From Candidatus Thorarchaeota archaeon (lineage in GTDB: Archaea > Asgardarchaeota > Thorarchaeia > Thorarchaeales > Thorarchaeaceae), in NCBI GenBank assembly GCA_048884785.1, contig JBHLQM010000025.1:1-42447 (forward strand): a stretch of DNA of 42,447 nucleotides, written 5' to 3'. Under the pieces are notes generated by a model. It saw nothing but the letters and a program-made list of their open reading frames with translations. It was not told the DNA's origin and did no database searches. Positions 25,912 through 41,109 of this stretch are shown one piece after another. The position numbers and the translations under genes were made by a program. Positions within the stretch are counted from its first letter, which is position 1, and each line of letters starts with the position of its first letter.

Positions 25912-27192
25912 ATGAAAGAGCTGAAAGATGTTTGGTTGGTTGATTATGCACGTACTCCATTCTCACGATCGCGTCCTCAAAACCCAGAAACTGATGTCTT
26001 TGGTGAGATTAGGGGAGATACACTCCTATCGCACTTAATCAAGAAATTCTTTGATGGATCTCTCGCAAAGAAAGGAATTGAAAAGAAAGATATTGATGAA
26101 ATCACAGTCGGTGTGGCTGCGGGGGTCCTTGAGAACTGGATCTATGGCGGCAAAATACCGGCTTTTATGTCAGGATTTCCACACCACGTGGCTTCCTTTT
26201 CTATCGATCGTCAGTGCGGGTCTGCTGGGTCAGGAATGCATGTTGGTATCATGGAGATTATGACAGGTTTCAGTACTATTGTATTATCAACTGGCTTTGA
26301 ACACATGACTCGCGTGCGAGGAAAAGGAGTGGAACCCAACTTTTCCTTTGGTGATATGAACTCGGAGTTCTATAGACCTGACATTGATGTCAATACAGTG
26401 TTCAACATGTTGCAGACTGCACAGAAACTATACGAGGAGGAGGTTCCTACCTTTACCAAGGAGGATATGGACAAACTCGGTGTGAGAAGTCATAACCTGA
26501 CTGTCAAGAATCAAGAGAGTGGATGGTTTAACGGAGAAATCATTCCTATACAAGGACATGTATCTGGCAACATTGACGAACCTATGTTGGTTGATAGGGA
26601 TATGAATCCACGGGCCTCAACACTCGAAAAGGTTTCCACTCTGCCACGTATATCACAACCCTACTATCTTGAGAAAAATGGTGGAAAAGAGGGTTATGTC
26701 AAACGAGAGGGAACAGAAGAGGGAGTGATTACCGCAGGAAATGCCTCACCTCTGAATGCAGGCGCTACAGCTGCTGTTTTAATGGCGGCCAAAGAGGCAG
26801 AAAATAGAGGTATAGAACCTATGGCACGAATTGTTTCTATGGGCTGGGCGGGCGTTGATCCGACGGTAATGGGTCGTGGACCCGTGCCTGCCACAATCAA
26901 GGCGCTCAAGCATGCAGGACTGAGTGTTGAAGACATCGACTTTTGGGAAATAAATGAGGCGTTCTGTATTGTAACACTGAATTGCATGGACAAGCTAAAT
27001 ATTCCCGAGGAGAAAGTAAATGTCATGGGCGGTTCGACCGCAATCGGACACCCTCTAGGTTCCACCATGATCAGATTAACGGGTACTCTTGCAAGAATCC
27101 TCAAAGACAAGAAGGCAAAATATGGAGTTGCTAATGCTTGTGTTGGTGGTGGGCAGGGCGTTGCAACTGTTATTGAGAACTTAGATGTGTAA
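25912..27192 (+). CDS. Acetyl-CoA acyltransferase (thiolase)
   Basis: RQCGS, TAGNASPLNAGA, EINEAF, GHPLG, CVGGGQG. Confidence 0.95.
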   Translation: MKELKDVWLVDYARTPFSRSRPQNPETDVFGEIRGDTLLSHLIKKFFDGSLAKKGIEKKDIDEITVGVAAGVLENWIYGGKIPAFMSGFPHHVASFSIDRQCGSAGSGMHVGIMEIMTGFSTIVLSTGFEHMTRVRGKGVEPNFSFGDMNSEFYRPDIDVNTVFNMLQTAQKLYEEEVPTFTKEDMDKLGVRSHNLTVKNQESGWFNGEIIPIQGHVSGNIDEPMLVDRDMNPRASTLEKVSTLPRISQPYYLEKNGGKEGYVKREGTEEGVITAGNASPLNAGATAAVLMAAKEAENRGIEPMARIVSMGWAGVDPTVMGRGPVPATIKALKHAGLSVEDIDFWEINEAFCIVTLNCMDKLNIPEEKVNVMGGSTAIGHPLGSTMIRLTGTLARILKDKKAKYGVANACVGGGQGVATVIENLDV

Positions 27193-28759: not shown

Positions 28760-29959
28760 CTAAAAATCAGGAGCTCTTTGTCCAGCCCACTTTGGCATTT
28801 TTTTCATGGCTGGATCATAGCCATCCAAGACATATCGCCCAAGAATTAGACGTTGGATTTCACTTGTGCCTTCGTATATCTGATACAGTTTTGCATCTCG
28901 GAATAGTTTCTCAAGAGGATATTGATCTATGTACCCATACCCTCCGTGTACCTGCACAGCTTCACTAGCACACCACATAGCTGCATCCGTTGCATACGCT
29001 TTTGCCACACTTGCTGGTATAGTTGAATCTGAGGTGTTATCAGCAGCCCAAGCTGCCTTGAGATAGAGAAGCCGTGATGCTTCAATTCTCATGTACATCT
29101 CAGCCAATTTGAACTGAATGACTTGAAAGTCCCTAAGCTTTTGATCGAATGCTTCTCGTTTGTTGACATACTCCCTTGCGTATTCCATGGCTGAACGTGC
29201 AAGTCCTGTGGCAAAGGCCGCGATAGCAGGACGAGTCATAGCAAAAGTACGCATTGCAATTTTGAATCCCATACCTTCTGCACCAAGGATGTTCTCTGCC
29301 GGAACCTTGGCATCTCTAAACATGACAGACCCGGTAGCCGAAGCTCGGTGTCCCATCTTCTCTATTTTGCGACCTGTCTTGACGCCTGGAGTATCTGCAT
29401 CAACAATGAATGCACAGAGAGCTTTATGCCTCTGGCTAGGATTTAGAGTCGCAAACACTGTAAAGTAATCTGCATAAGGTGCATTAGTAATCCAAAACTT
29501 CGAGCCATTGAGAATATAGTAGTCCCCTTCCCTTTTCGCAGTCGTCTTAATTCCTGCAACATCACTACCCATACCAGGCTCAGAACATGCAAAGGACACC
29601 AACTTTGGTTCTTCCACAAGTGGCCGAAGGTATTTCTCCTTCTGTTCCGATGTCCCAGCAACCATTATAGGCTCAGGACCTAGCTGATTGGCAAATATAC
29701 TGGTGGTCATTCCAGCGCAACCCGCTGCCATTTCCTCAACAACTATGCAAGCATCAACTAATCCTCGACCCGGACCTCCGTATTCTTTCGGGATTCCCAG
29801 ATTCATAAGCCCAGCTTCCCATGCCTTCCTGATTATCGGTATAGGAAACTCGCCAGTCTTGTCGTAATAAGAGGCGTATGGGAGCATATACTCTTGGGCG
29901 AAATCCCTCGCCTTTTTCTGTAGTTCAGTCTGTTCATCTGTCATTAAGAAACCTATCAT
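28760..29959 (-). CDS. Acyl-CoA dehydrogenase (short/medium chain type)
   Basis: SEPGMGSD, NGSKFWITN, KMGHR, QVHGGYGY, IYEGTSEIQR. Confidence 0.95.
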   Translation of the reverse strand: MIGFLMTDEQTELQKKARDFAQEYMLPYASYYDKTGEFPIPIIRKAWEAGLMNLGIPKEYGGPGRGLVDACIVVEEMAAGCAGMTTSIFANQLGPEPIMVAGTSEQKEKYLRPLVEEPKLVSFACSEPGMGSDVAGIKTTAKREGDYYILNGSKFWITNAPYADYFTVFATLNPSQRHKALCAFIVDADTPGVKTGRKIEKMGHRASATGSVMFRDAKVPAENILGAEGMGFKIAMRTFAMTRPAIAAFATGLARSAMEYAREYVNKREAFDQKLRDFQVIQFKLAEMYMRIEASRLLYLKAAWAADNTSDSTIPASVAKAYATDAAMWCASEAVQVHGGYGYIDQYPLEKLFRDAKLYQIYEGTSEIQRLILGRYVLDGYDPAMKKMPKWAGQRAPDF

Positions 29960-30045
29960 ATCACAAGCCACCCAATACCTGAAACTGAGTGACATACTAT
30001 AAGTCCCTTTTGAAAGGGCTGATTATACAGTCTGTATAACCCGTT

Positions 30046-32310
30046 CTATTTCAGAGATGCGAGGTGCCGAACTACCTCCGGTAGATGCCACTTCAAGTCC
30101 AGCTCCAGAGCTCCGCCGTTTGGACCTGGACATCGCCTGACACATGTTCGACAAGCTACACACAGCCAAAGATCCACGTCCACACTGCCAAAACCGGGTT
30201 TGTCTTCTTCGAATTCTATTTGCTTTGTTGGCTTCACCGCTGCAAGAGACCTAATCGTCCTGTAGAGCATAGCCTTGTTGACCGGATGGATCTCGATATC
30301 CTCACTTGACATTTCAAAATACTGTGGCAGATCAATGGTCGGATTCAACTCAATTGCATCTTCTGGACATGAAATTTCACACGACTTACAGCCAAGGCAT
30401 TTCTTCTCATCCCATTCTACTGTTCCAAACCCGAGAAGCGGAGCATATCCCATCATACTTCTATATTCATCAAGAACAGATGGAACATCCACATCCATGA
30501 GATCATCAATTGTGACCTTAGGGCGCGTGCTAGGAAGTCTTGCACGAGTACGATAACTCATCGAAACAGCCGTTTTGATTGTGTCTTCAATATCTGTGAG
30601 AACGATCTTGGCCACAACTATTCCATCAATCTCTATCTTCTCCATCTTGTCTCGAGCTCTGGAGAACACCTCAAGAGCATTAGTAAGCTTGCCAATTGTT
30701 TCTGCCTTTAAATCAGCAAGAATCTCATTGAAATCGCTCTTGGATTGATAGAGTTGTGATGCAAGAGTACATGCAGTCTGTAGTGCGATTTCAGCGTCAT
30801 TCAAAACCCTCGGAACGTCGTAGAGAATGTATCCGTGGTCCTCACCCACCATGGTGAGTAATTCATCACGTTTCATACGCAACAAATGACGGAGGATTCT
30901 ATCCTGAGGTATCTTGGTTCTTTCAGCAATGTTCTTGGCCGTCATTGCTCCTAACTCACGAATCAGAATGAGTATGATTCCTCTCTCTAATTCGCTATCA
31001 AGATATGAATCCATAATCTGTTTGTATTTCTCCGGATCGAGCTTCTCTCCATAAACATTCAATCCTGATACTAAATTGGGTCCTTTTTCAAGGGTGATTT
31101 TAAGCCTAAATCTGGCAAACGCTTCAAGTCCTGCTGACACAAGCAATCTCAAGTCCTCAGCATCTTCTGAGGCTTGAGAGCTTATTGCTATCTCAGCTGC
31201 TTTTTCAGTGGTCTCTCGGAGATTGGCCATGTGGTTTGCCAGCGCAGGCTCATCATACTCTCCCAGAATCTGCAGCCTTTTCAGAATGTCCTCAAGCTGA
31301 TGAAGTGCTTCTTCGGTTGAGGATTTGACATCACCGGTCAAGGTTTTTGCGATGCCTCGAAGCTGTTGAATTGCACGTTTTGTGACAAGAGTCGTATCGG
31401 GCGATTTGGCCAGCACTCTGGCAAAGACAGGAGCATCACCGTCAAGTCCTACCATTTCGACCTCTCCGCGGCCAATCATGCTTATTATGGCACTCTGCAT
31501 TTCCTGAGCTTCCATTCCCATAATCCCGGCAAGTTGAACTACGGTTTTGGATCCCATGTTATTCAGTGCGTAGATAATAAATCCGCGTCGTAATTCTAGC
31601 AGTAGATTGCCCCTAATCAAATCTAGATATCGTGAGTCGACTATTCGCTCTTCTTTCTTACCTCTCTTTATCTGTGCAGCCACGCGCAAGAAGGGTCCAT
31701 ACCTAGTCTTTGTTCCCAGCTTCTGGAGTCCCTCAAGAGCAGCATCTGGTTCAGAGTCTATATTTGAGGTCAAAGACGTATATGATTCTATCAACGAGTT
31801 CAATTCTTCTTGAGCGGCTTTCTCCTTGGCACGTGATTTCTCCTCAAATCCATCTACAACTTCTCTAACAGCATTGATGATTTGAGGTAGCTCCTTTAGA
31901 ACTGCTCCGATGTCCTGAACTTGCTCCTTCTGAACCAACTCAACACTCTTGGTCATTTCATCGAGAACAGGCTCCAATTCCTCAAGTAGATCTTTAACTC
32001 CAGAAGAGGAGGTCTTTGCAATGGCAGCCTTCAGATGCATGATTGCCTCAGTAAGGACGCCTTTATCCGCGACTCGTTTTACAAGGCCGGTCTTCTTTGA
32101 TGAATCATAGAATTCCTCATAATATTTGTCTGGGAATGCAAGAATCTCTGCAGCAAGGGGTTCCATTTCTGCCTTCAGCTGGCTGATTTCCTCATTCACT
32201 CTGCTGAGTGGAATAACAGTTTCTTCTTTCAATCCACCAAGTACCATTATCATGTCCATCATGCGTTTTCTCTTAGGCGCGAATTCCTTTGCAGCAATGT
32301 CACTACTCAT
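30046..32310 (-). CDS. Hdr-associated multidomain protein: helical/coiled-coil regions, two winged-helix repeats, C-terminal 2x[4Fe-4S] ferredoxin
   Basis: CLGCKSCEISCP and CVACRTCVRRCP; ungapped internal repeat aa 228-297 / 429-498; TAATG-coupled to hdrA-mvhD. Confidence 0.75.
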   Translation of the reverse strand: MSSDIAAKEFAPKRKRMMDMIMVLGGLKEETVIPLSRVNEEISQLKAEMEPLAAEILAFPDKYYEEFYDSSKKTGLVKRVADKGVLTEAIMHLKAAIAKTSSSGVKDLLEELEPVLDEMTKSVELVQKEQVQDIGAVLKELPQIINAVREVVDGFEEKSRAKEKAAQEELNSLIESYTSLTSNIDSEPDAALEGLQKLGTKTRYGPFLRVAAQIKRGKKEERIVDSRYLDLIRGNLLLELRRGFIIYALNNMGSKTVVQLAGIMGMEAQEMQSAIISMIGRGEVEMVGLDGDAPVFARVLAKSPDTTLVTKRAIQQLRGIAKTLTGDVKSSTEEALHQLEDILKRLQILGEYDEPALANHMANLRETTEKAAEIAISSQASEDAEDLRLLVSAGLEAFARFRLKITLEKGPNLVSGLNVYGEKLDPEKYKQIMDSYLDSELERGIILILIRELGAMTAKNIAERTKIPQDRILRHLLRMKRDELLTMVGEDHGYILYDVPRVLNDAEIALQTACTLASQLYQSKSDFNEILADLKAETIGKLTNALEVFSRARDKMEKIEIDGIVVAKIVLTDIEDTIKTAVSMSYRTRARLPSTRPKVTIDDLMDVDVPSVLDEYRSMMGYAPLLGFGTVEWDEKKCLGCKSCEISCPEDAIELNPTIDLPQYFEMSSEDIEIHPVNKAMLYRTIRSLAAVKPTKQIEFEEDKPGFGSVDVDLWLCVACRTCVRRCPGPNGGALELDLKWHLPEVVRHLASLK

Positions 32311-34472
32311 TATTCAGCCTCCATCCATTTTCCTGCTGTTCCCTTATGAACCGGAGTTGGACCCAATTTCTGACTTCGTTTGACCATCTCATTTATTGCG
32401 TTGGTAAAGCGATCAGGTTCCGCACTGAACATTCTAAATAACTCAACTCGTTCTCCCTCCCATCCGATTGCATTCAGAATTTCGCGTGCCACGTCTACTT
32501 GAACTTGGGCAATCTCATTTCCAGTACCACCAATGTGACATCTATCCACTTCGCAAGCTGCGATCATCACTGTACTCGCACCATTCTCAAATGCCTTTAG
32601 AATGTCAATTATACTCACACGCCCAGCACATGGTACTGCTATCAGCCGAGTGTTACTTGGATACTGCATTCGTCTTGTCCCTACAATATCAATCGTGGAA
32701 ACGGAGCACTCTTCACAATAGAAACATACTGTAATAGGATTCTCTGGACCCGCATCTGTCAAGACTGCATCGACCTGAGACCACAACTGCTCATTTCCCA
32801 AGAAGTTTAGCTGAGTTGCACCTGAGGGACAAAGACTCTGACAGACTCCACAAGCGTGACAATTCAATGTATCAATTGAGGCTTTGAAGAGTATCTTCTG
32901 TTCCTCATCGAGCTCTTCCTCTTCAGTCTGTTCGATCATGAGAGGCACACCACGTGGACACTGCTGTGCACAGAGACTGCATCCCACGCAATCATCCACG
33001 TTTAAGACCGCACCGCGAGCAATAGACTGGATATTTCCATTCTGCAATTCGTTATGCAAAACCAGCGATGCCGCTTGAGAATCCGTTACTGCTTCAAAGA
33101 CGAACTGAGGTCTGGTTACGCCCCCGACTGCAACAACACCGCGACGGCGAGTTTCGTTTCTTCGTAGTTTTCCATATAGTTCTTTGATATGTCCATCATC
33201 CTCAATCGCAAATCCGAGAGTTTCAGAGAGTTCAGTCATGCCTTTAGGTGGCAAGATGGCTGCTGAAAGGACTAAGAGGTCTGTGGGGATCTCAAAATAC
33301 TGATTGAGCAAGGAATCGTATATCTTGACATAGGTTTGTCCCTCTTTTTCCCAGACCATACTTACGCGTCCACGAATATAGTCCACTCCCAACCTTCTTG
33401 ATTCCTGATATATGAGCTCATTCTCAAATGGAACCCTAATATCCATGTAGACAATCTTGACTCGAATCTCTGGATGACTCTTAAGAATCTCAGTTGCATT
33501 ATCTATGGCGAATGTACAACATAGTTTGCTGCAGTCTCTTTTGTAGTCCTCAGACCGACTTCCAACGCATTGAACCATAACAATCTCTTTTATTTCTCCA
33601 TCATTGGAAGGTTTCTTGAACTCGCCAGCGGACAGCATACACGCGAGTTCATACTGCGTTATCACATCCGGTATCTTGCCGTATCCATACTCATCCATCA
33701 TAACTGGCTTGAATTCCCTAAAACCTGTGGCCATCACAATCGCAGATGTTTGAAGGGTTTCTTCATTACCATCATGAAGGTAATGCACCGTGAAATCTCC
33801 CATTTCCCCCTCAAAGAATTTGACTGTACTCTTGGTCATTACTGTAATTTGCTTGCTATTATCAAGAGCCTCGAGCCGTCCATTTAGTATCTCTCTGCCA
33901 GATTTACCTGTAGGGGCTACGACTGGTAGATTCAAGACATGCCCACCTAGTTTGTCATCCAGCTCCAATAGAGTCACGCTGTATCCTAAGCCATCTAGAC
34001 TCAGAGCCGCTTCTATTCCTGCAATGCCTCCACCTATCACAGTAACGTGACTAGGAATCTCTTTCTTCTCAATCTGAAGGGAATTTGAATAGGCTGCCGC
34101 TGCAACGCCTCCTCGAAGCATTGCCAGAGACTTCTGACTTGCTTCTTGCGAATCCGAATGAACCCATGCAGAGTGTTCTCGAATGTTTACATACCGACAG
34201 CGAGACGGGTCTAGACTCTCACCTCTGAGATACAAATCAACTCTTGGCTGCAGTTTCTGGTTAGTACATGCACCAATTACAAGCCGTCCGCTGTTCTTCT
34301 CTACAAGATCTGCAATCTTCTGTAGTCCGTCGTCTTGGCAGCATGTATCATGAATGATTACTGAGGACACCTGTGGCGTCTTCTTTAGTTCAGATACCAG
34401 AAAGTCATAATCAAGACTGAGCTGCTTGCCACAGGTACACAACAGCACAGACACTTTCTCTTTGTCAGTCAT
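32310..34472 (-). CDS. hdrA: HdrA-like flavoprotein fused to MvhD (QmoB-like architecture)
   Basis: CTCG, NIREH.AWVH, GGGIAG, QCVGSR...CSKLCC, two CxxCxxCxxxCP motifs, MvhD domain FYCEEC...VPCAGR...AC....CH; start trimmed to ATG 34472. Confidence 0.9.
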   Translation of the reverse strand: MTDKEKVSVLLCTCGKQLSLDYDFLVSELKKTPQVSSVIIHDTCCQDDGLQKIADLVEKNSGRLVIGACTNQKLQPRVDLYLRGESLDPSRCRYVNIREHSAWVHSDSQEASQKSLAMLRGGVAAAAYSNSLQIEKKEIPSHVTVIGGGIAGIEAALSLDGLGYSVTLLELDDKLGGHVLNLPVVAPTGKSGREILNGRLEALDNSKQITVMTKSTVKFFEGEMGDFTVHYLHDGNEETLQTSAIVMATGFREFKPVMMDEYGYGKIPDVITQYELACMLSAGEFKKPSNDGEIKEIVMVQCVGSRSEDYKRDCSKLCCTFAIDNATEILKSHPEIRVKIVYMDIRVPFENELIYQESRRLGVDYIRGRVSMVWEKEGQTYVKIYDSLLNQYFEIPTDLLVLSAAILPPKGMTELSETLGFAIEDDGHIKELYGKLRRNETRRRGVVAVGGVTRPQFVFEAVTDSQAASLVLHNELQNGNIQSIARGAVLNVDDCVGCSLCAQQCPRGVPLMIEQTEEEELDEEQKILFKASIDTLNCHACGVCQSLCPSGATQLNFLGNEQLWSQVDAVLTDAGPENPITVCFYCEECSVSTIDIVGTRRMQYPSNTRLIAVPCAGRVSIIDILKAFENGASTVMIAACEVDRCHIGGTGNEIAQVQVDVAREILNAIGWEGERVELFRMFSAEPDRFTNAINEMVKRSQKLGPTPVHKGTAGKWMEAE

Positions 34473-34476
34473 TGTT

Positions 34477-35724
34477 TCACTTCCGGTCCTGAAGAATTCT
34501 TGATACCACTGCCCGTGCTTGGGTAACAGACTCAGGAACTTCTGCAGGTCCCAATGCTGTTCCGCATGCATAGACATGATCCCCAGCAACGACCTCGTTT
34601 TCTGAAACAGGGTCTGCTGGCGCAATGAATCCGCTTGCCACATTTAGCCCAAGTGACTCGATTATCTTGTTTCCGTCCGCAGGTGGTTCAAGTGCAGAAG
34701 AAAGAACAAATAGATCTACAACAAATTTCAGGTAGGTATCCAGCAACGAGTCATACACGATAACTTCAACTACATCATCTCGTGGCTGGACTCTAGTGAT
34801 TCTTCCGCGGATAAACTCGATACCATTTTCTCTTGCCTCACGGTAGTAGCGTTCGTGTCGATCATATGTTCGAATATCCATGTATACCACGCTTACTTGA
34901 TGGGCATCGCGCTCCTCAACCATGATATTTGCATGTTTCAAAGCGAAAACACAACAAATCTTTGAGCAATACGGGTAGTAGTTTTCGTCCCTGCTCCCAA
35001 CACATTGAACCATCATAACATGTTTTGCAGGCTTCCCGTCAGATGGTCGGACCAAGCGCCCTCCTGTGGTGCCATTTGGATCTAATAGCTGCGCCAACTC
35101 AAGCTGGGTGATGATGTTCGGGTGCTTTCCATATGAGTACTCGTCTATGTTGACAGGTTTCATTTCATGATAACCAGTTGCAACAATGATGTCAGACACT
35201 TTGACAACTTCTTCTCGAGGTTGTGCTTTTAGATCGATGGCTTTGGTTGGACATTCCTCAGCAGCTTTCTGTATTCCATCATCGGCTTTTTCGGGGTCAT
35301 AAATCACTGCTTGAGGTTGGCATTGCGGCGATACCAATGAGAACGCCTTAGAATGTTCAATGCAGACCCCGCACATGATGCACTTCTTTGCGCTTACGAA
35401 TTCAGGGCCCATGTGTATAGTAACCTCGAATTTACCAGGTACTCCAGAGATTTCGTTGACATATGAGTTAACCCTGAGATCTATGTTTGGCTGGTCTATC
35501 AAAGCACTTCTATAGAAGCATTTTCTGATGCCAGGACGCCAACGATTGCCTTCGAAACAGTAAAAGCAATCGTCTGTTGGAAATGCTTTGTAGAGGTCGA
35601 GTGCATTACCTCCAACTGTGGGAAGCCTTTCCACAACAATAGCTTTCACTCCGGAGTCAGCAAGCTCCACTGCCGCTGTAAGACCCGCAACGCCAGCGCC
35701 TATGATAAGGACCGGACTTGTCAT
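34477..35724 (-). CDS. hdrA: Short HdrA-like flavoprotein (QmoA-like length)
   Basis: GAGVAG, K.FPTDDCFYC, QCVGSR...CSKICC, YMDIRT; lacks the N-terminal Fe-S domain and C-terminal ferredoxin. Confidence 0.9.
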   Translation of the reverse strand: MTSPVLIIGAGVAGLTAAVELADSGVKAIVVERLPTVGGNALDLYKAFPTDDCFYCFEGNRWRPGIRKCFYRSALIDQPNIDLRVNSYVNEISGVPGKFEVTIHMGPEFVSAKKCIMCGVCIEHSKAFSLVSPQCQPQAVIYDPEKADDGIQKAAEECPTKAIDLKAQPREEVVKVSDIIVATGYHEMKPVNIDEYSYGKHPNIITQLELAQLLDPNGTTGGRLVRPSDGKPAKHVMMVQCVGSRDENYYPYCSKICCVFALKHANIMVEERDAHQVSVVYMDIRTYDRHERYYREARENGIEFIRGRITRVQPRDDVVEVIVYDSLLDTYLKFVVDLFVLSSALEPPADGNKIIESLGLNVASGFIAPADPVSENEVVAGDHVYACGTALGPAEVPESVTQARAVVSRILQDRK

Positions 35725-35737
35725 TAACTACCACATC

Positions 35738-36604
35738 CTACTCTGTTAGATGGTCAATAATTGGATCCGCTGTCACCCGATTCATAGAAAGACCCACATC
35801 GTCTTCATCCAATCCTATGGCAAGTCCGAGTATCTGGGGATACAACAATATCGGAAGATTGTACTCCTCGCCATATGAGTCCTTGAGTCCTAACTGCTGC
35901 AAATCAAGCTGGTTTGTACACGCAGGGCATACTGTTGTTGCGAACACCGCACCAGCTTCTGTCATTGATTTCAGTTTATCTCGGGCAAGTCTAATTGCCA
36001 AATTCTCATTTACTGGAAGCACAGTTGCACCACAACATTGTTTCCACAGTGGATAGTCAATAACCGTTGCACCAGTGACTTTGACAAGCTCCTCTAGTAT
36101 GTGAGGAGAAAACTCTGTCACATCCTCCGGCCTTAGAAGATGACATCCATAATGAATTGCCACACCCACACCATCGAGCGGTTTTGAAACTCTCTTTTGA
36201 ATCTCTTCAATACCAATATCTGTGTAGAGTGCCTCCACAAAATGCCTTGGTCTGGCCGTTCCTTTGAATTCCAGGCCTTCTTTCTTCAAGATCTCATTGA
36301 CCTTCTTCTTGTAGTCCTTATCATGCTTGAGAAAATGATATGCATCTTTTAGGGATGCAAAACACCCATTACATGGTGTGACTATGTCATGTCCGTTCTT
36401 CTCAGCGATTGCCAAGGTTCTAGCGTTTACAGTCAGCCAACCCATGTAATCCATTGACCGAAGATTCGGACTGCCACAACAGGCGACATTTTCTAGATAC
36501 TCTAGTGTCATTCCAAATTCTGAGGCAACTTTGATCATAGCGGCCTCATAATTCGGGTAGTTTGCTGGAACGCTGCATCCCATGTACAAATTATACGATG
36601 GCAT
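35738..36604 (-). CDS. hdrB: Heterodisulfide reductase subunit B
   Basis: Two CCG domains: GC...CCG...CNGC and HYGCH...CCG...CPAC; ATG 36604 after SD GGAGG. Confidence 0.94.
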   Translation of the reverse strand: MPSYNLYMGCSVPANYPNYEAAMIKVASEFGMTLEYLENVACCGSPNLRSMDYMGWLTVNARTLAIAEKNGHDIVTPCNGCFASLKDAYHFLKHDKDYKKKVNEILKKEGLEFKGTARPRHFVEALYTDIGIEEIQKRVSKPLDGVGVAIHYGCHLLRPEDVTEFSPHILEELVKVTGATVIDYPLWKQCCGATVLPVNENLAIRLARDKLKSMTEAGAVFATTVCPACTNQLDLQQLGLKDSYGEEYNLPILLYPQILGLAIGLDEDDVGLSMNRVTADPIIDHLTE

Positions 36605-36605
36605 T

Positions 36606-37154
36606 TCAATCCAGCCCTCCCACAATCTTGCCTGTTCTTGTATCCTTGATGATTGATTTCATTCCATCAGTTGACAATCCTGGTACAGAGGGCTCCAGAC
36701 CCATATCTTCTCGCTCCCAGTCTGCAGTCACAACATAGAGCTGTCCTTTTTCAAGAAGTTCTTTTGCAAGGCCTACAATATTAGGTGGAATCTTGCCTGC
36801 TTCAGCAGCTAGGTTCTTACAATCAAAGAATATGTCTGTCACACGGACTTTTTGCGGGCATCGTTCTTGACATTGAAAACATGTCAAACATAACCATATC
36901 TCATCGGATGAGAGGACTTCTTCACGCATTCCCAAAATTATCATTCTAATCAATTGATGCGGCTTGTATCTCCAAGAATTCGCAATGGGACAAGCTGCTG
37001 TACAAGTAGAACATGCGAAACAAGCAAAAAGCTCTTCGCCGTTTGGCATGCTTTTAATCTCGTCCTTGAATTTAGAATCAAGCTTGGACATATCAATGGG
37101 ATCGACCATCACAGCCGGAGGGCCTTCCTTTTCATTCACTTCGGTCATGACCAC
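36606..37154 (-). CDS. hdrC: Heterodisulfide reductase subunit C
   Basis: CFACSTCTAACP, IWLCLTCFQCQERCPQ. Confidence 0.94.
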   Translation of the reverse strand: MVMTEVNEKEGPPAVMVDPIDMSKLDSKFKDEIKSMPNGEELFACFACSTCTAACPIANSWRYKPHQLIRMIILGMREEVLSSDEIWLCLTCFQCQERCPQKVRVTDIFFDCKNLAAEAGKIPPNIVGLAKELLEKGQLYVVTADWEREDMGLEPSVPGLSTDGMKSIIKDTRTGKIVGGLD

Positions 37155-37211
37155 TGGACCACCTTTGTATTGACTGATGAGCTAAGTAGCTGGTAGAGCG
37201 AAATTCAAGCC

Positions 37212-37227
37212 TATATTAAAAGTTTCC
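37212..37227 (-). promoter_or_regulatory. Putative BRE/TATA promoter of hdr operon
   Basis: Minus strand GGAAAC-TTTTAATATA about 60 nt upstream of hdrC. Confidence 0.55.
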
Positions 37228-37474: not shown

Positions 37475-37771
37475 CTATTGCTTCGAAAGTTCTTGGATTA
37501 GAGAGTCAATCTTCAACACCATCATATTATTGTTGCTTGTAACATAGTCCTTGATTTCGTGAACCAGCCTGATCAGATATGTTTGAAGGTTTTGTGGAGA
37601 CCCCTGCAGCGCCTTAAGAGTTGGTTGTGGTTGGTCTAGTAGTCGAAAGACTCCTGTTAGAGCAACAAGCAGCTTTTCAAAAAGAGCTTCTGACTCGCCC
37701 GTGCTTTCTTCAATCTTCTTGGATATTTCATTCAACCGTTCAACAAAGGACACATCAACCACTCTTCTCAT
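37475..37771 (-). CDS. Hypothetical helical protein
   Basis: 98-aa amphipathic helical ORF overlapping the gins stop. Confidence 0.6.
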   Translation of the reverse strand: MRRVVDVSFVERLNEISKKIEESTGESEALFEKLLVALTGVFRLLDQPQPTLKALQGSPQNLQTYLIRLVHEIKDYVTSNNNMMVLKIDSLIQELSKQ

Positions 37772-38396
37772 CAGCTTCTATTTGGGTAGGTACAAATCTC
37801 TCAACAGTTCCATTTCGCAGCCAAGTCTTTGCATTAGCAGTCGGTATTGTGGCAGTATCTCCTTCATCAAACGGACCATGAACAATCTCGTCGAGTCCCA
37901 TAAATGGTTCTTTCACTGGACGTTTGAAAATGACAGTGATGTATTCCAATTCATCTGATTCAGGAGGTTCTTTCTTCGATGGGACTTCCTTCTTCTCTTT
38001 TTTGGATCGTTTCATGGTGGCTACAGGTTTTCCAGCAATTATCTCTTCAACAAAGTTGGAATGGTCTAAGAACCCCCTTTTCACTCTATCATAGAACTCC
38101 TCTTCAGCCAGTGTCAATGATGCAGTCAGCGCTTGTTCGTTAAAGGCGTATCTCAATATCTTGTTTCTTCTTAGCGTTAGAAGATCACGAAGCATGAATT
38201 CAATGTTCAGTCCCTCTTGAGTGAAAAGATCAACCTGAAGCTGATTATTGGAAGGTGTTTCTGCTAATTTCAATCTCACTTCAGACAGATACTTTACCAT
38301 CTTACTCAATTTGAGGTCATCAAGACTTTGAAGTGACTCATTGTCCTTCTCATCCTTCCATGCACGCTTCAGTTCTTCATAACCCAAATCACTCAA
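37755..38396 (-). CDS. gins15: GINS complex subunit, Gins15/Gins51 type (A domain + C-terminal B domain)
   Basis: L..LR..KI, LT..E..FY, F.GLD...GPF..GD.A.IP..NA; TTG 38396 overlaps the priS stop; pcna-priS-gins synteny. Confidence 0.87.
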   Translation of the reverse strand: MSDLGYEELKRAWKDEKDNESLQSLDDLKLSKMVKYLSEVRLKLAETPSNNQLQVDLFTQEGLNIEFMLRDLLTLRRNKILRYAFNEQALTASLTLAEEEFYDRVKRGFLDHSNFVEEIIAGKPVATMKRSKKEKKEVPSKKEPPESDELEYITVIFKRPVKEPFMGLDEIVHGPFDEGDTATIPTANAKTWLRNGTVERFVPTQIEADEKSG

Positions 38397-39846
38397 TACT
38401 TGCAATCCCCTTACATAATAGAAAGACTGCCACAGCCTTTGGCAGCTCCTCTGTAGTATCATTGAAAGGTCCATAAACAGTATCTCTAATTCTAAATTTT
38501 GGAATATCGATTGTTCTCTTTGGAATCTTGACTTTGAAGGGCTCATCTCCGAATACAATTGATTCCTCGAAGGGGTCGAATTCTGTAAGTTCATCTCTTG
38601 ATATCCCTGTTACTGAAAATCCAGTCTTTCCATTCAGACTTCCGATGAGTCGTATCACACGATGCACATCGGTGGTAACTGGAATATCAATATGAGCGCT
38701 GTAGGATAAAGCCGCTTTGTTGGCAATTTCCTGCCAATATTTTGCTCCAACTCCTTTAACTTTGGCACTTAGCAAAGGTGGATTCTTTTTTAGTCCTGCA
38801 ATTGCATCCTGTCTATGAGATATCAATGCCTTTACCCAAGACTCCTTTCCTTCGTAAGACTCAATCGAGTCTATGAATTCTATCATGGCATCAGCAAGTT
38901 TTCTAGCAATCGAAGGAAGCTGCCAGTTGCGAATTCTCCCATCAGATAATGACTCTTCAAACCCATCTCTCTCTAATCTTCCTCTTGATTCCCTTTCTTT
39001 CTCATTTGAAGGTACAATTCTCAGATAGCCATCAGAGGCGATTGTACTGATTAGCCCTATCCCAGATATATAGTGTGCCAGCTCCATTCGTCCATCTGAG
39101 TCAAGAGAAAAAACACTTGGATCCTTTACTCTGACATGGTACCCTCTGTGACCGCTGTAATTCAGTTGAATCTTATCAGAATCAAGTCCAAAATGATCCA
39201 CTAGAAACTTGTCATACAGTTTGATTGTATTGATTCTTGCATCATTCAAGCACTCATCACATACCCACTTTAATGACCAAAAGGAGTTCTCACTGCAATC
39301 TGGACAAGTATCTGGACGCGCCCCAGTACCTGTCTTGCCGCAGTTTGAGTTTGTGCACTGCCAAGAGTCATGTCTTGAGGCACACTCTGAATCAAGGTGG
39401 TCGGCATCAATATCAAATACTAGTTCGGCCCCACTCCATTCCTTTTCTGACATTGTTCTGGCAACAGGAACTTGATAGAATGCTGCTGAATGATATACGC
39501 TATGAGGAACAGATTTGACAAGTTCGTTCAAGAGATCATCTTTTGTACGGAACCCAACATGACGTGACCATCTTGTTGTTTGAAGGCCCGGTGAATTACA
39601 GTTTGGACATGTCTGCAGGTCCGTGAATGACCTACCGCCGCTGCCACACCCTCTCTTTACCTTCCTGCCGTCTTCCAGCTCTTCTGTCCGTTTTCTGCAG
39701 ACCCATCCATAGTCCCAGTTCTCAAGTCCAAATTCTCTATTCTGTACTCTGTCCGGTATATCCACTTTATCTTGATTTGTTCGATAGTACTCTTGAAACA
39801 CCAACTGAAGCAGTTTCCTGTTTCGAACACTTCTATCTTGGGCCAT
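38389..39846 (-). CDS. priS: DNA primase catalytic subunit with extra Zn ribbons
   Basis: REFG, ELVFDIDAD, YSGHRGYH, D..VT.D.HR.IR..GSLNGKTG, GINS-B-like C-terminal domain. Confidence 0.95.
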   Translation of the reverse strand: MAQDRSVRNRKLLQLVFQEYYRTNQDKVDIPDRVQNREFGLENWDYGWVCRKRTEELEDGRKVKRGCGSGGRSFTDLQTCPNCNSPGLQTTRWSRHVGFRTKDDLLNELVKSVPHSVYHSAAFYQVPVARTMSEKEWSGAELVFDIDADHLDSECASRHDSWQCTNSNCGKTGTGARPDTCPDCSENSFWSLKWVCDECLNDARINTIKLYDKFLVDHFGLDSDKIQLNYSGHRGYHVRVKDPSVFSLDSDGRMELAHYISGIGLISTIASDGYLRIVPSNEKERESRGRLERDGFEESLSDGRIRNWQLPSIARKLADAMIEFIDSIESYEGKESWVKALISHRQDAIAGLKKNPPLLSAKVKGVGAKYWQEIANKAALSYSAHIDIPVTTDVHRVIRLIGSLNGKTGFSVTGISRDELTEFDPFEESIVFGDEPFKVKIPKRTIDIPKFRIRDTVYGPFNDTTEELPKAVAVFLLCKGIASIE

Positions 39847-39855
39847 TCGTAGCCC

Positions 39856-40638
39856 TCAATACCTTCTTTCTTCCACAATAGGAGCTAGCAGGAAGCTAAT
39901 CCTACCACTCTCAGCTATTCCAAAATCGATGACCATTGGCTTGTCTGTGCTGAATTGAAGAACAACACTGTCCCCACTCATTGCTTTGGCAATCTCTGAT
40001 AGGTAGCTTAGCGAATACCGCGCCTGAGACTCGGTATCCACTTTCAAATCAAACAGGGCTGATTCATCATCTCCCTTTTTCAGAGAAACTTCAGCCTCTC
40101 CTGTATCACCTTCTCCTTTGAAGACAATTGATTCTGAATTGGCAGCGATTTTGATATGGTTGGAAACCACTCCAATGTCTTTGACTGCTTGCTTAAAGGA
40201 GTCTGCAAACATCTCAGCACGTATATCGTGCGTAAGACTAGGTTTCTTGCTTTTTACTTCTGGGGGAGTAAGAAGCTGAAGACTGAAGCGCCTCTCAGCC
40301 TGGCCCAACATCTTGATCTCAAATCGGTCAAACTGATCTGTTTTCTGGTCTGTTGATTTAATCAGGTTGAATTCCAGTCTGTCATCGCCAGCCATTCTCT
40401 TGCTTATCTTGACAAGTTCGTCAATACCAAGGCATACATAATGCTCTCCTTCACAAACGAATTCCTGAAAGACGCCTGAGGGCAGATTGAGATTTATCAT
40501 TGCCGCCTTTGAGGAGTCAAGCTGATGAAGTGTAATACCACTCTCTGTCACAACAAGGTGTGCTTCTGTTAGCAGCGTTGCCAGAGCGTCTACAATCTGT
40601 TTCCATGTTTTTGTACTATCAAGGGTCGCATGAAGCAT
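39856..40638 (-). CDS. pcn: DNA polymerase sliding clamp PCNA
   Basis: D.S..AM..L.L, F..F, YSL.YL, P....F, FLLAP; ATG 40638 after SD GGAGG. Confidence 0.92.
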   Translation of the reverse strand: MLHATLDSTKTWKQIVDALATLLTEAHLVVTESGITLHQLDSSKAAMINLNLPSGVFQEFVCEGEHYVCLGIDELVKISKRMAGDDRLEFNLIKSTDQKTDQFDRFEIKMLGQAERRFSLQLLTPPEVKSKKPSLTHDIRAEMFADSFKQAVKDIGVVSNHIKIAANSESIVFKGEGDTGEAEVSLKKGDDESALFDLKVDTESQARYSLSYLSEIAKAMSGDSVVLQFSTDKPMVIDFGIAESGRISFLLAPIVEERRY

Positions 40639-41109
40639 GATACATCCTCCAGATTCATCCTGCAAATGCTCGATTAATTTTGCTTGCAAGGTACTATGAA
40701 ACTTGTTCTCTTTTTAAGTGAGTGGAGCCCCTTATAGATTATTCTTCAGGTTCATCAAATTTAAGATGCGGCCATTTTGATTTGCAGATATTTAGAATAT
40801 GCTAAGAGTCGCTATATATCTCAAAGCGAATAACCCTGCTGTATTCTCAGTTAGTTCCTTAAGCTGGGGAATTACATTCTCATCAAAGTCCTGCTTTAGA
40901 TGAATAATTTTCGACTCGCTCGACTACACTGACTACACACCATCTAGTGGAAAATACTCGAAATCTTGGACTGTATCATCAGCTTACGTTAGGATGCAAC
41001 TCCAAGTCAAAGCATATAATTCCGGAGGAGTATACCTTGGATATGACACACAGTACTTCAAGCTGAACGGAGGCGAAGTTCCACCAATAGAATAAAGCAA
41101 GGTGTAAAA

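Follow-up and report, generated by a model that had tools for sequence, protein, structure and literature searches.

Flavin-based electron bifurcation is typified by complexes of heterodisulfide reductase (Hdr) with MvhD, which also stand at the centre of proposals on energy metabolism in Asgard archaea, the prokaryotes most closely related to eukaryotes. We analysed a 42,447-nucleotide (nt) stretch of a Candidatus Thorarchaeota archaeon genome (contig JBHLQM010000025.1 of GenBank assembly GCA_048884785.1, hereafter the window), focusing on X754, our label for the 754 amino acid (aa) Hdr-associated winged-helix (wH)/ferredoxin protein encoded there as a fifth, unannotated gene of the main hydrogenase-free Hdr operon of Thorarchaeota, a gene present in nearly every genome. 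In other MvhD-containing Hdr systems the position beside MvhD is taken by the MvhAG hydrogenase, FdhAB or FlxABC (PDB 5odc, 7bkb and relatives). In a preprint that examines class II benzoyl-CoA reductase by cryo-EM, BamF, a homologue of MvhD, is described as exceeding other MvhD adaptors in length by >100 residues and as having a winged helix-turn-helix (wHTH) motif that interfaces with BamI of the electron-input module, a protein-protein role (10.64898/2026.04.10.717634). In methane-metabolising archaea a GltD insertion into HdrA itself defines type III HdrA (PMC12054007).

Like the genes for MvhAG, FdhAB and FlxABC, the X754 gene adjoins mvhD, and the [4Fe-4S] clusters of its product could feed MvhD. 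Unlike them, the 754-aa protein lacks a catalytic site, has no sequence kinship with them beyond the generic ferredoxin motif, and consists over ~620 aa of a helical scaffold plus wH domains. With long MvhD proteins of the BamF type it shares a wH module tied to MvhD in HdrA-containing complexes, BamF being compared here by its description in the preprint. It differs from the BamF type in that the wH lies on a separate 754-aa protein, is duplicated, and is set in a helical scaffold joined to a 2x[4Fe-4S] domain; the chain carries no FlpD domain or [2Fe-2S] MvhD, which is found on the preceding protein. The architecture appears undescribed, although proteins of this kind, adaptors that serve HdrA/MvhD complexes as electron-transfer accessories, are known. 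Our literature search retrieved no description of an X754-type protein and databases name its homologues just '4Fe-4S dicluster domain-containing protein', so that the description of the protein as unrecognised in an earlier reading made from the DNA letters and their open reading frames (ORFs), hereafter the sequence-only reading, holds for the databases and literature searched.

We consider, with somewhat more confidence than doubt, that X754 is a Hdr/MvhD-docked electron-relay and scaffold subunit, that is, an undescribed iron-sulfur adaptor. A relay or docking subunit at the MvhD port is suggested because the gene's place in the operon is fixed, its cluster ligands are invariant, its second winged helix (wH2) is MvhD-linked and its scaffold accepts a flavoprotein module. 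In a survey of 301 genomes of the phylum, a full-length X754 orthologue was identified as a single copy in 75 of the 76 genomes of the window's own family, and two other families (G297, G240) yielded full-length homologues at ~23-25% identity. Full-length homologues with 55-68% identity number more than 240 and come almost all from Thorarchaeota metagenome-assembled genomes (MAGs), and further relatives of ~740 aa in the representatives library come from Helarchaeota MAGs. Residues 1-620 match only 50 proteins at E ≤1e-3 among 1.84 billion. The synteny survey proposed in the sequence-only reading recovered the order hdrC-hdrB-hdrA-hdrA/mvhD-X followed by acd, an acyl-CoA dehydrogenase gene, in nine of ten own-family loci examined; at the tenth (L023) all that lies upstream of X is an MvhD-like fragment. 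At both distant loci (Helarchaeota-type genomes G297 and G240; ~25% identity) X stands directly after hdrA/mvhD and is followed by hdrC-hdrB, placing it inside the operon, without acd. Judged by these gene orders, the X754 gene is a fixed member of the hdr operon across deep divergence. In the window the X754 ATG and the hdrA-mvhD TAA share one A, a stop/start overlap of 1 nt with a Shine-Dalgarno-like GGAGG 8 nt upstream, which bears out the translational coupling proposed earlier. No hydrogenase lies near this hdr operon, the MvhD-linked [NiFe] hydrogenase of the window genome being encoded on another contig.

Translation, Pfam and AlphaFold2 modelling upheld the previously proposed plan of a duplicated winged helix followed by two [4Fe-4S] clusters. 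Only the C-terminal dicluster ferredoxin domain exceeds a Pfam cut-off (Fer4_7 36.3 bits against 27, Fer4 31.1 bits against 21.1). Its two CxxCxxCxxxCP motifs, C638-P649 (nt 30364-30399) and C717-P728 (nt 30127-30162), are intact as predicted and are parted by an insert of ~60 aa. All eight cluster cysteines are invariant across an alignment of 54 family sequences (A1, the source of the profiles and of the full-length AlphaFold2 model), homologues at 20-23% identity included. A scan of Pfam and NCBIfam gave no model covering the first 620 residues, and named NCBIfam models gave generic ferredoxin matches only, far under every cut-off. Canonical Hdr/Mvh models (CCG, FlpD, the HdrA models of NCBIfam, NiFe hydrogenase) were not matched.

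The link between wH2 and MvhD was identified by sequence homology. A phmmer search with X754 residues 380-500 (1.84e9 proteins, representatives library) retrieved fusions of MvhD (FlpD) to a winged helix, namely P0159, P0154 and P0163, the last of which also carries two Fer4 motifs, together with wH proteins of ~115 aa, at E-values from 2e-7 to 1e-3. Alignment of wH2 with these relatives revealed a common pattern of FRLR, GNVYGEKL and a winged helix whose third helix has a conserved LRH..LR. In X754 the end of the helical linker (396-425) forms the FRLK..NVYGEKL leader of wH2, a motif common to MvhD tails. The phmmer matches and the alignment bear out the likeness, noted in the sequence-only reading, of the NVYGE-wHTH unit to the C-terminal tails of MvhD-like proteins. 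Residues 396-502 accordingly belong by homology to an MvhD-associated winged-helix module, an uncurated family, to which the first winged helix (wH1), without the NVYGEKL motif, is linked only via wH2. The module is fused to mvhD or lies directly after it in a hdr locus in the case of X754 and of loci L049-L054, L056 and L060. In six loci from three other Asgard families it is fused to mvhD, directly behind it, or between hdrB and hdrC, and hdr loci of Methanothrix and Desulfobacterales contain MvhD+wH fusions too. The fusion in a Desulfobacterales MAG (L056:7977-8732) has an in-frame TGA at a conserved cysteine position, which probably encodes selenocysteine, and the gene order there (HdrA-like, MvhD+wH, HdrC-like, then NuoE-, NuoF- and NuoG-like) is the layout of BamE-F-GHI; Wood-Ljungdahl genes (FTHFS, FolD, CODH) surround this locus. 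An ESM Atlas structure search returned chiefly MvhD+HTH clusters and small wH proteins, and the ESM Atlas feature search with X754 no usable match. No paralogue of the wH2 module turned up in a search of the window genome, and a search with residues 417-620 for fused forms >1320 aa also found none, which is weak evidence.

Natural variants of the gene exchange or add whole domains. Six own-family genomes (G167, G188, G182, G200, G161, G108) encode a 972-980-aa form (L027:8745-11687 in G167) in the same place as X754, after hdrA/mvhD and before acd. Residues 1 to ~205 and 417-754 are conserved in this form, the latter at 57% identity, and residues ~206-416, comprising wH1 and the linker, are swapped for a Fer4_20 + Pyr_redox_2 module of the GltD/NfnB type with a GAGPAG FAD motif and a second dinucleotide motif, GGGNAA, for NAD(P)H. 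A third form of at least 1114 aa, truncated by the contig end (L055:3-3290, minus strand, G185) and also lies directly after hdrA/mvhD, contains in order the N-terminal helices, the GltD-like module (after residue ~205), wH1, the linker, wH2, the helical region and the start of the ferredoxin domain; by this domain order it seems intermediate between the 754-aa and the 972-aa form. The presence of a GltD-like NAD(P)H flavoprotein module in natural variants suggests that X754 is a scaffold for electron input. The sequence-only reading had offered a scaffold or electron conduit wired to Hdr as one of two options, and this fits a gene kept after hdrA-mvhD down to 25% identity, a wH family attached to MvhD elsewhere and variants with an NAD(P)H module. 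The 972-aa variant resembles in this respect the NAD(P)H-linked FlxABCD-HdrABC idea. As in type III HdrA (PMC12054007), a GltD-like NAD(P)H module has been recruited to an Hdr system by in-frame insertion, there however into HdrA and here into the accessory X subunit of some Thorarchaeota; we found no earlier description of such an insertion in an accessory Hdr subunit. The variants provide a testable handle on function. Elsewhere in the window genome, which has eight MvhD domains in total, GltD-like modules with 50% identity occur in two large ORFs of 941 and 1169 aa a few kb from other mvhD genes (G000:C74:4895-12350 and G000:C18:28272-31156), and the one on C74 lies beside a [NiFe] hydrogenase large subunit.

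The internal repeat noticed previously was exact: residues 228-290 and 429-491 align ungapped at an offset of 201 aa with 15 of 63 identities. On the single sequence this diagonal is marginal, scoring 53 where 100 shuffles gave 36.5 +/- 4.5 with a maximum of 58. Comparison by HHalign of profiles derived from A1 (221-305 against 422-505) gave a probability of 98.1% and an E-value of 8.8e-14 over 84 columns, and because this profile-profile match is strong, the wH1/wH2 duplication is, on the evidence of the alignment, real and old. A larger helix+wH unit repeated two to three times was considered and rejected as unproven (flanking helices P ~1e-3, probability ≤20%). Searches of the PDB with the single-sequence repeats gave nothing under E 0.09 for either.

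Both repeats were modelled by AlphaFold2 as winged helices, in agreement with the spacing on which the sequence-only reading had based the same assignment. The full-length model has a mean predicted local distance difference test score (pLDDT) of 78 and a predicted template modelling score (pTM) of 0.40, and a further model limited to residues 1-420 (from alignment A2) a pLDDT of 80.6 and a pTM of 0.53. Units 225-298 and 426-498 share the topology H-H-H-beta-hairpin, a long helix and two short helices followed by a hairpin. In VIA superpositions, the source of all Z scores given here, wH2 matched the ArsR homologue PH1932 (1uly; Z 12.7, root mean square deviation (rmsd) 2.6 Å over 68 residues) and Zalpha (Z 11.5, 1.2 Å over 62) and also superposed on TrmBL2 and MarR proteins, and wH1 matched Zalpha (4kmf; Z 8.8, 1.1 Å over 62) and PH1932 (Z 8.5). 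Both repeats thus have the winged-helix fold of ArsR/MarR/TrmB factors. Neither reached the curated Pfam cut-off of an ArsR/MarR/TrmB wHTH family, the sub-threshold matches being on wH2 only: MarR_2 (19.8 bits, cut-off 27), HTH_5 (18.8, 22), TrmB (17.6, 25.6), HTH_20 (14.8, 27) and Rrf2. The helices surrounding wH1 gave generic three-helix-bundle matches only (Z 7-9). Foldseek placed RPC62/C82 at the top for the full model (E 3e-4) and weakly matched CSN2, Rpn and eIF3 with residues 1-420 (E 0.02-0.1). X754 is like the eukaryotic multi-wH scaffolds (RPC62/C82 of RNA polymerase III, lid subunits with PCI domains) in alternating helical segments with winged helices, which those scaffolds use for protein contacts; the template modelling scores of 0.1-0.17 and rmsd of ~30 Å make this a likeness of composition and not evidence of homology. 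The weak Foldseek rows were thus rejected as evidence of a PCI-domain/RPC62 relationship, and neither family was among the top VIA rows.

We propose that X754 would act as a stoichiometric, non-catalytic Fe-S adaptor in the HdrC-HdrB-HdrA(short)-HdrA/MvhD complex of Thorarchaeota and Helarchaeota, filling the place of MvhAG, FdhAB or FlxABC. Its 2x[4Fe-4S] domain would exchange electrons one at a time with the [2Fe-2S] cluster in the HdrA-fused MvhD domain, along a path and in a direction that we infer, and the long helical scaffold and both winged helices would serve as protein-docking elements. With its FRLK..NVYGEKL leader, wH2 may be the counterpart of the wH tail that MvhD carries elsewhere and would probably anchor X754 at the MvhD/HdrA port; the MvhD (FlpD) domain of the window's hdrA-mvhD stops 16 residues short of the protein end and has no wH tail. 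The wH1 block would probably hold a separately encoded electron-donor or electron-acceptor protein, a role that the built-in GltD-like NAD(P)H:FAD module may take over in some relatives. If X754 is such an electron-entry or electron-exit subunit, metabolic reconstructions that list only hdrABC and mvhD miss the component that chooses the substrate of the complex. The analysis also adds to the case that one particular family of winged helices serves MvhD as an accessory for docking proteins; if so, caution is called for in annotating such proteins as ArsR/MarR regulators.

Several observations weigh against this assignment. The association of X754 with Hdr is argued from gene context and homology, and a pTM of 0.40 gives low confidence in the modelled arrangement of its domains. 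The structures closest to the wH fold are those of DNA-binding regulators (ArsR, MarR, TrmBL2, Zalpha), the putative recognition helix of wH2 keeps the basic residues R471, H475, R478, K480 and R481 in at least 45 of the 54 sequences, and a minority of the small free-standing wH relatives are basic (pI 9.2-9.8). The ArsR/MarR-type matches in structure and in sub-threshold Pfam scores (MarR_2, HTH_5, TrmB, Rrf2), and the basic third helix of wH2, would suit the other option of the sequence-only reading, a redox-sensing transcription factor in which the two winged helices bind DNA as a single-chain pseudo-dimer, the 2x[4Fe-4S] domain senses redox or Hdr state, and the hdr operon or its neighbours are controlled; genes for regulators often lie within the operon that they control. 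We found this option unsupported and regard it as unlikely. A classical regulator is disfavoured because both winged helices are acidic to neutral (mean net charge in the family -1.1 for wH1 and -3.7 for wH2), wH1 is dispensable in the 972-aa form, where a flavoprotein module replaces it at the same locus, and we saw no conserved operator. In nine orthologous regions upstream of hdrC a BRE/TATA element (BRE, B recognition element) is the sole conserved block, with no palindrome or operator seen, and the acd upstream regions of orthologues conserve their own promoter element only. In the window a perfect palindrome, CCCTTT-CA-AAAGGG (30005-30018), overlaps the acd BRE/TATA element and is not conserved in orthologues. 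X754 as a whole is likewise acidic (net charge ~ -25), and C514 is its sole cysteine outside the ferredoxin domain, leaving none within the wH domains. Both repeats are like ArsR/SmtB, MarR and TrmB factors in fold (Z 8.5-12.7) and in weak Pfam similarity, but they score under cut-off, are acidic, occur as two copies in a chain with a ferredoxin domain, lack the dimerisation architecture of those families and include one copy that natural variants dispense with. In archaea and bacteria alike, wH modules homologous to these are joined in one chain with MvhD, an electron carrier; in BamF, the sole long MvhD with a reported wHTH that has been studied structurally, this motif is reported to contact a protein (10.64898/2026.04.10.717634); and translational coupling suggests synthesis in enzyme-subunit amounts, which would be unusual for a regulator. 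Both X754 winged helices probably bind protein partners and not DNA.

Other explanations concern the partner of X754 or its membership of the complex. In a narrower version of the scaffold model, one that names the partner, X754 might tether the neighbouring acyl-CoA dehydrogenase to HdrA/MvhD via the wH1 block, coupling acyl-CoA oxidation or enoyl-CoA reduction to bifurcating Hdr without ETF. The acd gene follows X754 in nine of the ten own-family loci, the 972-aa form included, the operon encodes no other donor module, and wH1 is dispensable only where an NAD(P)H module is built in. We nevertheless rate this tether as quite improbable: a conserved BRE/TATA element of its own (29997-30018) makes acd probably a separate transcription unit, a gap of 86-140 nt divides it from X754, the two distant loci keep X in the hdr operon without acd, the 972-aa form retains the acd neighbour though it has no wH1, and the usual partner EtfAB is encoded on another contig (C20:29327-30806). 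The finding of these EtfAB genes led us to reject the idea of an acyl-CoA dehydrogenase without its usual partner. It is likewise doubtful, though slightly less so, that X754 is a modular docking platform constituting a new class of Hdr input, whose wH1 block recruits a free-standing dehydrogenase such as acd to the MvhD port, or does so and also binds nucleic acid. If true, this would connect fatty-acid or amino-acid carbon metabolism to ferredoxin in Asgard archaea by an Hdr-based bifurcation that needs no ETF, and nucleic-acid binding would in addition couple the state of the enzyme to gene expression. Finally, X754 could serve in maturation or assembly, or be a ferredoxin-like protein in its own right that shares the transcript, and so not be a functional part of Hdr, given that operon membership alone is no proof of a stable complex and that the helical scaffold belongs to no recognisable family. 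This too has a low probability in our judgement, as against it stand the adjacency to hdrA/mvhD kept at 25% identity and through changes of gene order, the homology of wH2 to MvhD-linked modules, the redox flavoprotein module inserted in the same chain and the invariant cluster ligands. A Hdr/MvhD-docked adaptor remains the reading we prefer.

Table 1 Features of X754 and of the hdr operon in the window (positions in nt)
Feature	Position	Strand	Basis
X754, whole gene (754 aa plus stop)	30046..32310	minus	ORF and translation
N-terminal helical region, residues 1-220	31651..32310	minus	AlphaFold2 secondary structure, conservation, comparison with the 972-aa variant
Winged helix 1 (wH1), residues 221-300, first repeat copy	31411..31650	minus	HHalign, structural superposition
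Helical linker, residues 301-421	31048..31410	minus	AlphaFold2; bundle around wH1 formed jointly with helices 141-219
Winged helix 2 (wH2), residues 422-502, member of the MvhD-associated wH family	30805..31047	minus	Sub-threshold Pfam, superposition, phmmer, alignment
Helical region 3, residues 503-595	30526..30804	minus	AlphaFold2 (pLDDT 80-90), three long helices
Acidic linker, residues 596-626, low model confidence, conserved sequence	30433..30525	minus	pLDDT 37-53, net charge -3
2x[4Fe-4S] ferredoxin domain, residues 627-754	30049..30432	minus	Pfam Fer4_7, Fer4, Fer4_6 over cut-off
Coupling junction: GGAGG, then hdrA-mvhD TAA stop overlapping X754 ATG by 1 nt	32308..32322	minus	Direct sequence reading
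hdrA-mvhD fusion (probable start at 34472)	32310..34472 (listed ORF 32310-34643, 777 aa)	minus	Pfam FlpD 639-761 of 777, NCBIfam HdrA2
Short hdrA	34477-35724	minus	Pfam, NCBIfam
hdrB, two CCG domains	35738-36625	minus	Pfam, NCBIfam
hdrC	36606-37154	minus	Pfam, NCBIfam
hdr operon BRE/TATA-type promoter element (GAAACTTTTAATATAG), ~55 nt upstream of hdrC	37211..37226	minus	Alignment of nine orthologous upstream regions
Acyl-CoA dehydrogenase (acd), probable start 29959, downstream of X754	28760-29959	minus	

The remaining parts of X754 show conservation of their own. Pfam has no family for the N-terminal helical region (residues 1-220), which is retained in all three architectures and contains a nearly invariant basic motif, APKRKRMMDM (K13, R14). 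Helical region 3 is 57% identical to its counterpart in the 972-aa variant, and in the zone of the acidic linker P610 and G627-F628-G629 are invariant in the 54-sequence alignment.

Upstream of X754 the operon runs on the same strand as hdrC-hdrB-hdrA(short)-hdrA/mvhD. Orthologues of hdrA-mvhD align only from about residue 51-63 of the listed ORF, and from this alignment the true start is probably M58 (nt 34472). A start at M58 would remove most of the overlap of hdrA-mvhD with the short hdrA. Directly upstream of the hdr operon lie genes for PCNA, the primase small subunit (PriS) and a GINS51-like protein (37755-40689, minus strand), an arrangement conserved across the window's own family. 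Between these replication genes and the hdr promoter is a 98-aa ORF (37475-37771, minus strand) with no Pfam match. Some orthologous loci show weak conservation of this ORF (29-35% identity), and the aligned DNA looks as if it codes for a hydrophobic product. On the other side, a thiolase gene (25912-27192, plus strand) and acd flank an archease/RNA methyltransferase pair near the hdr operon.

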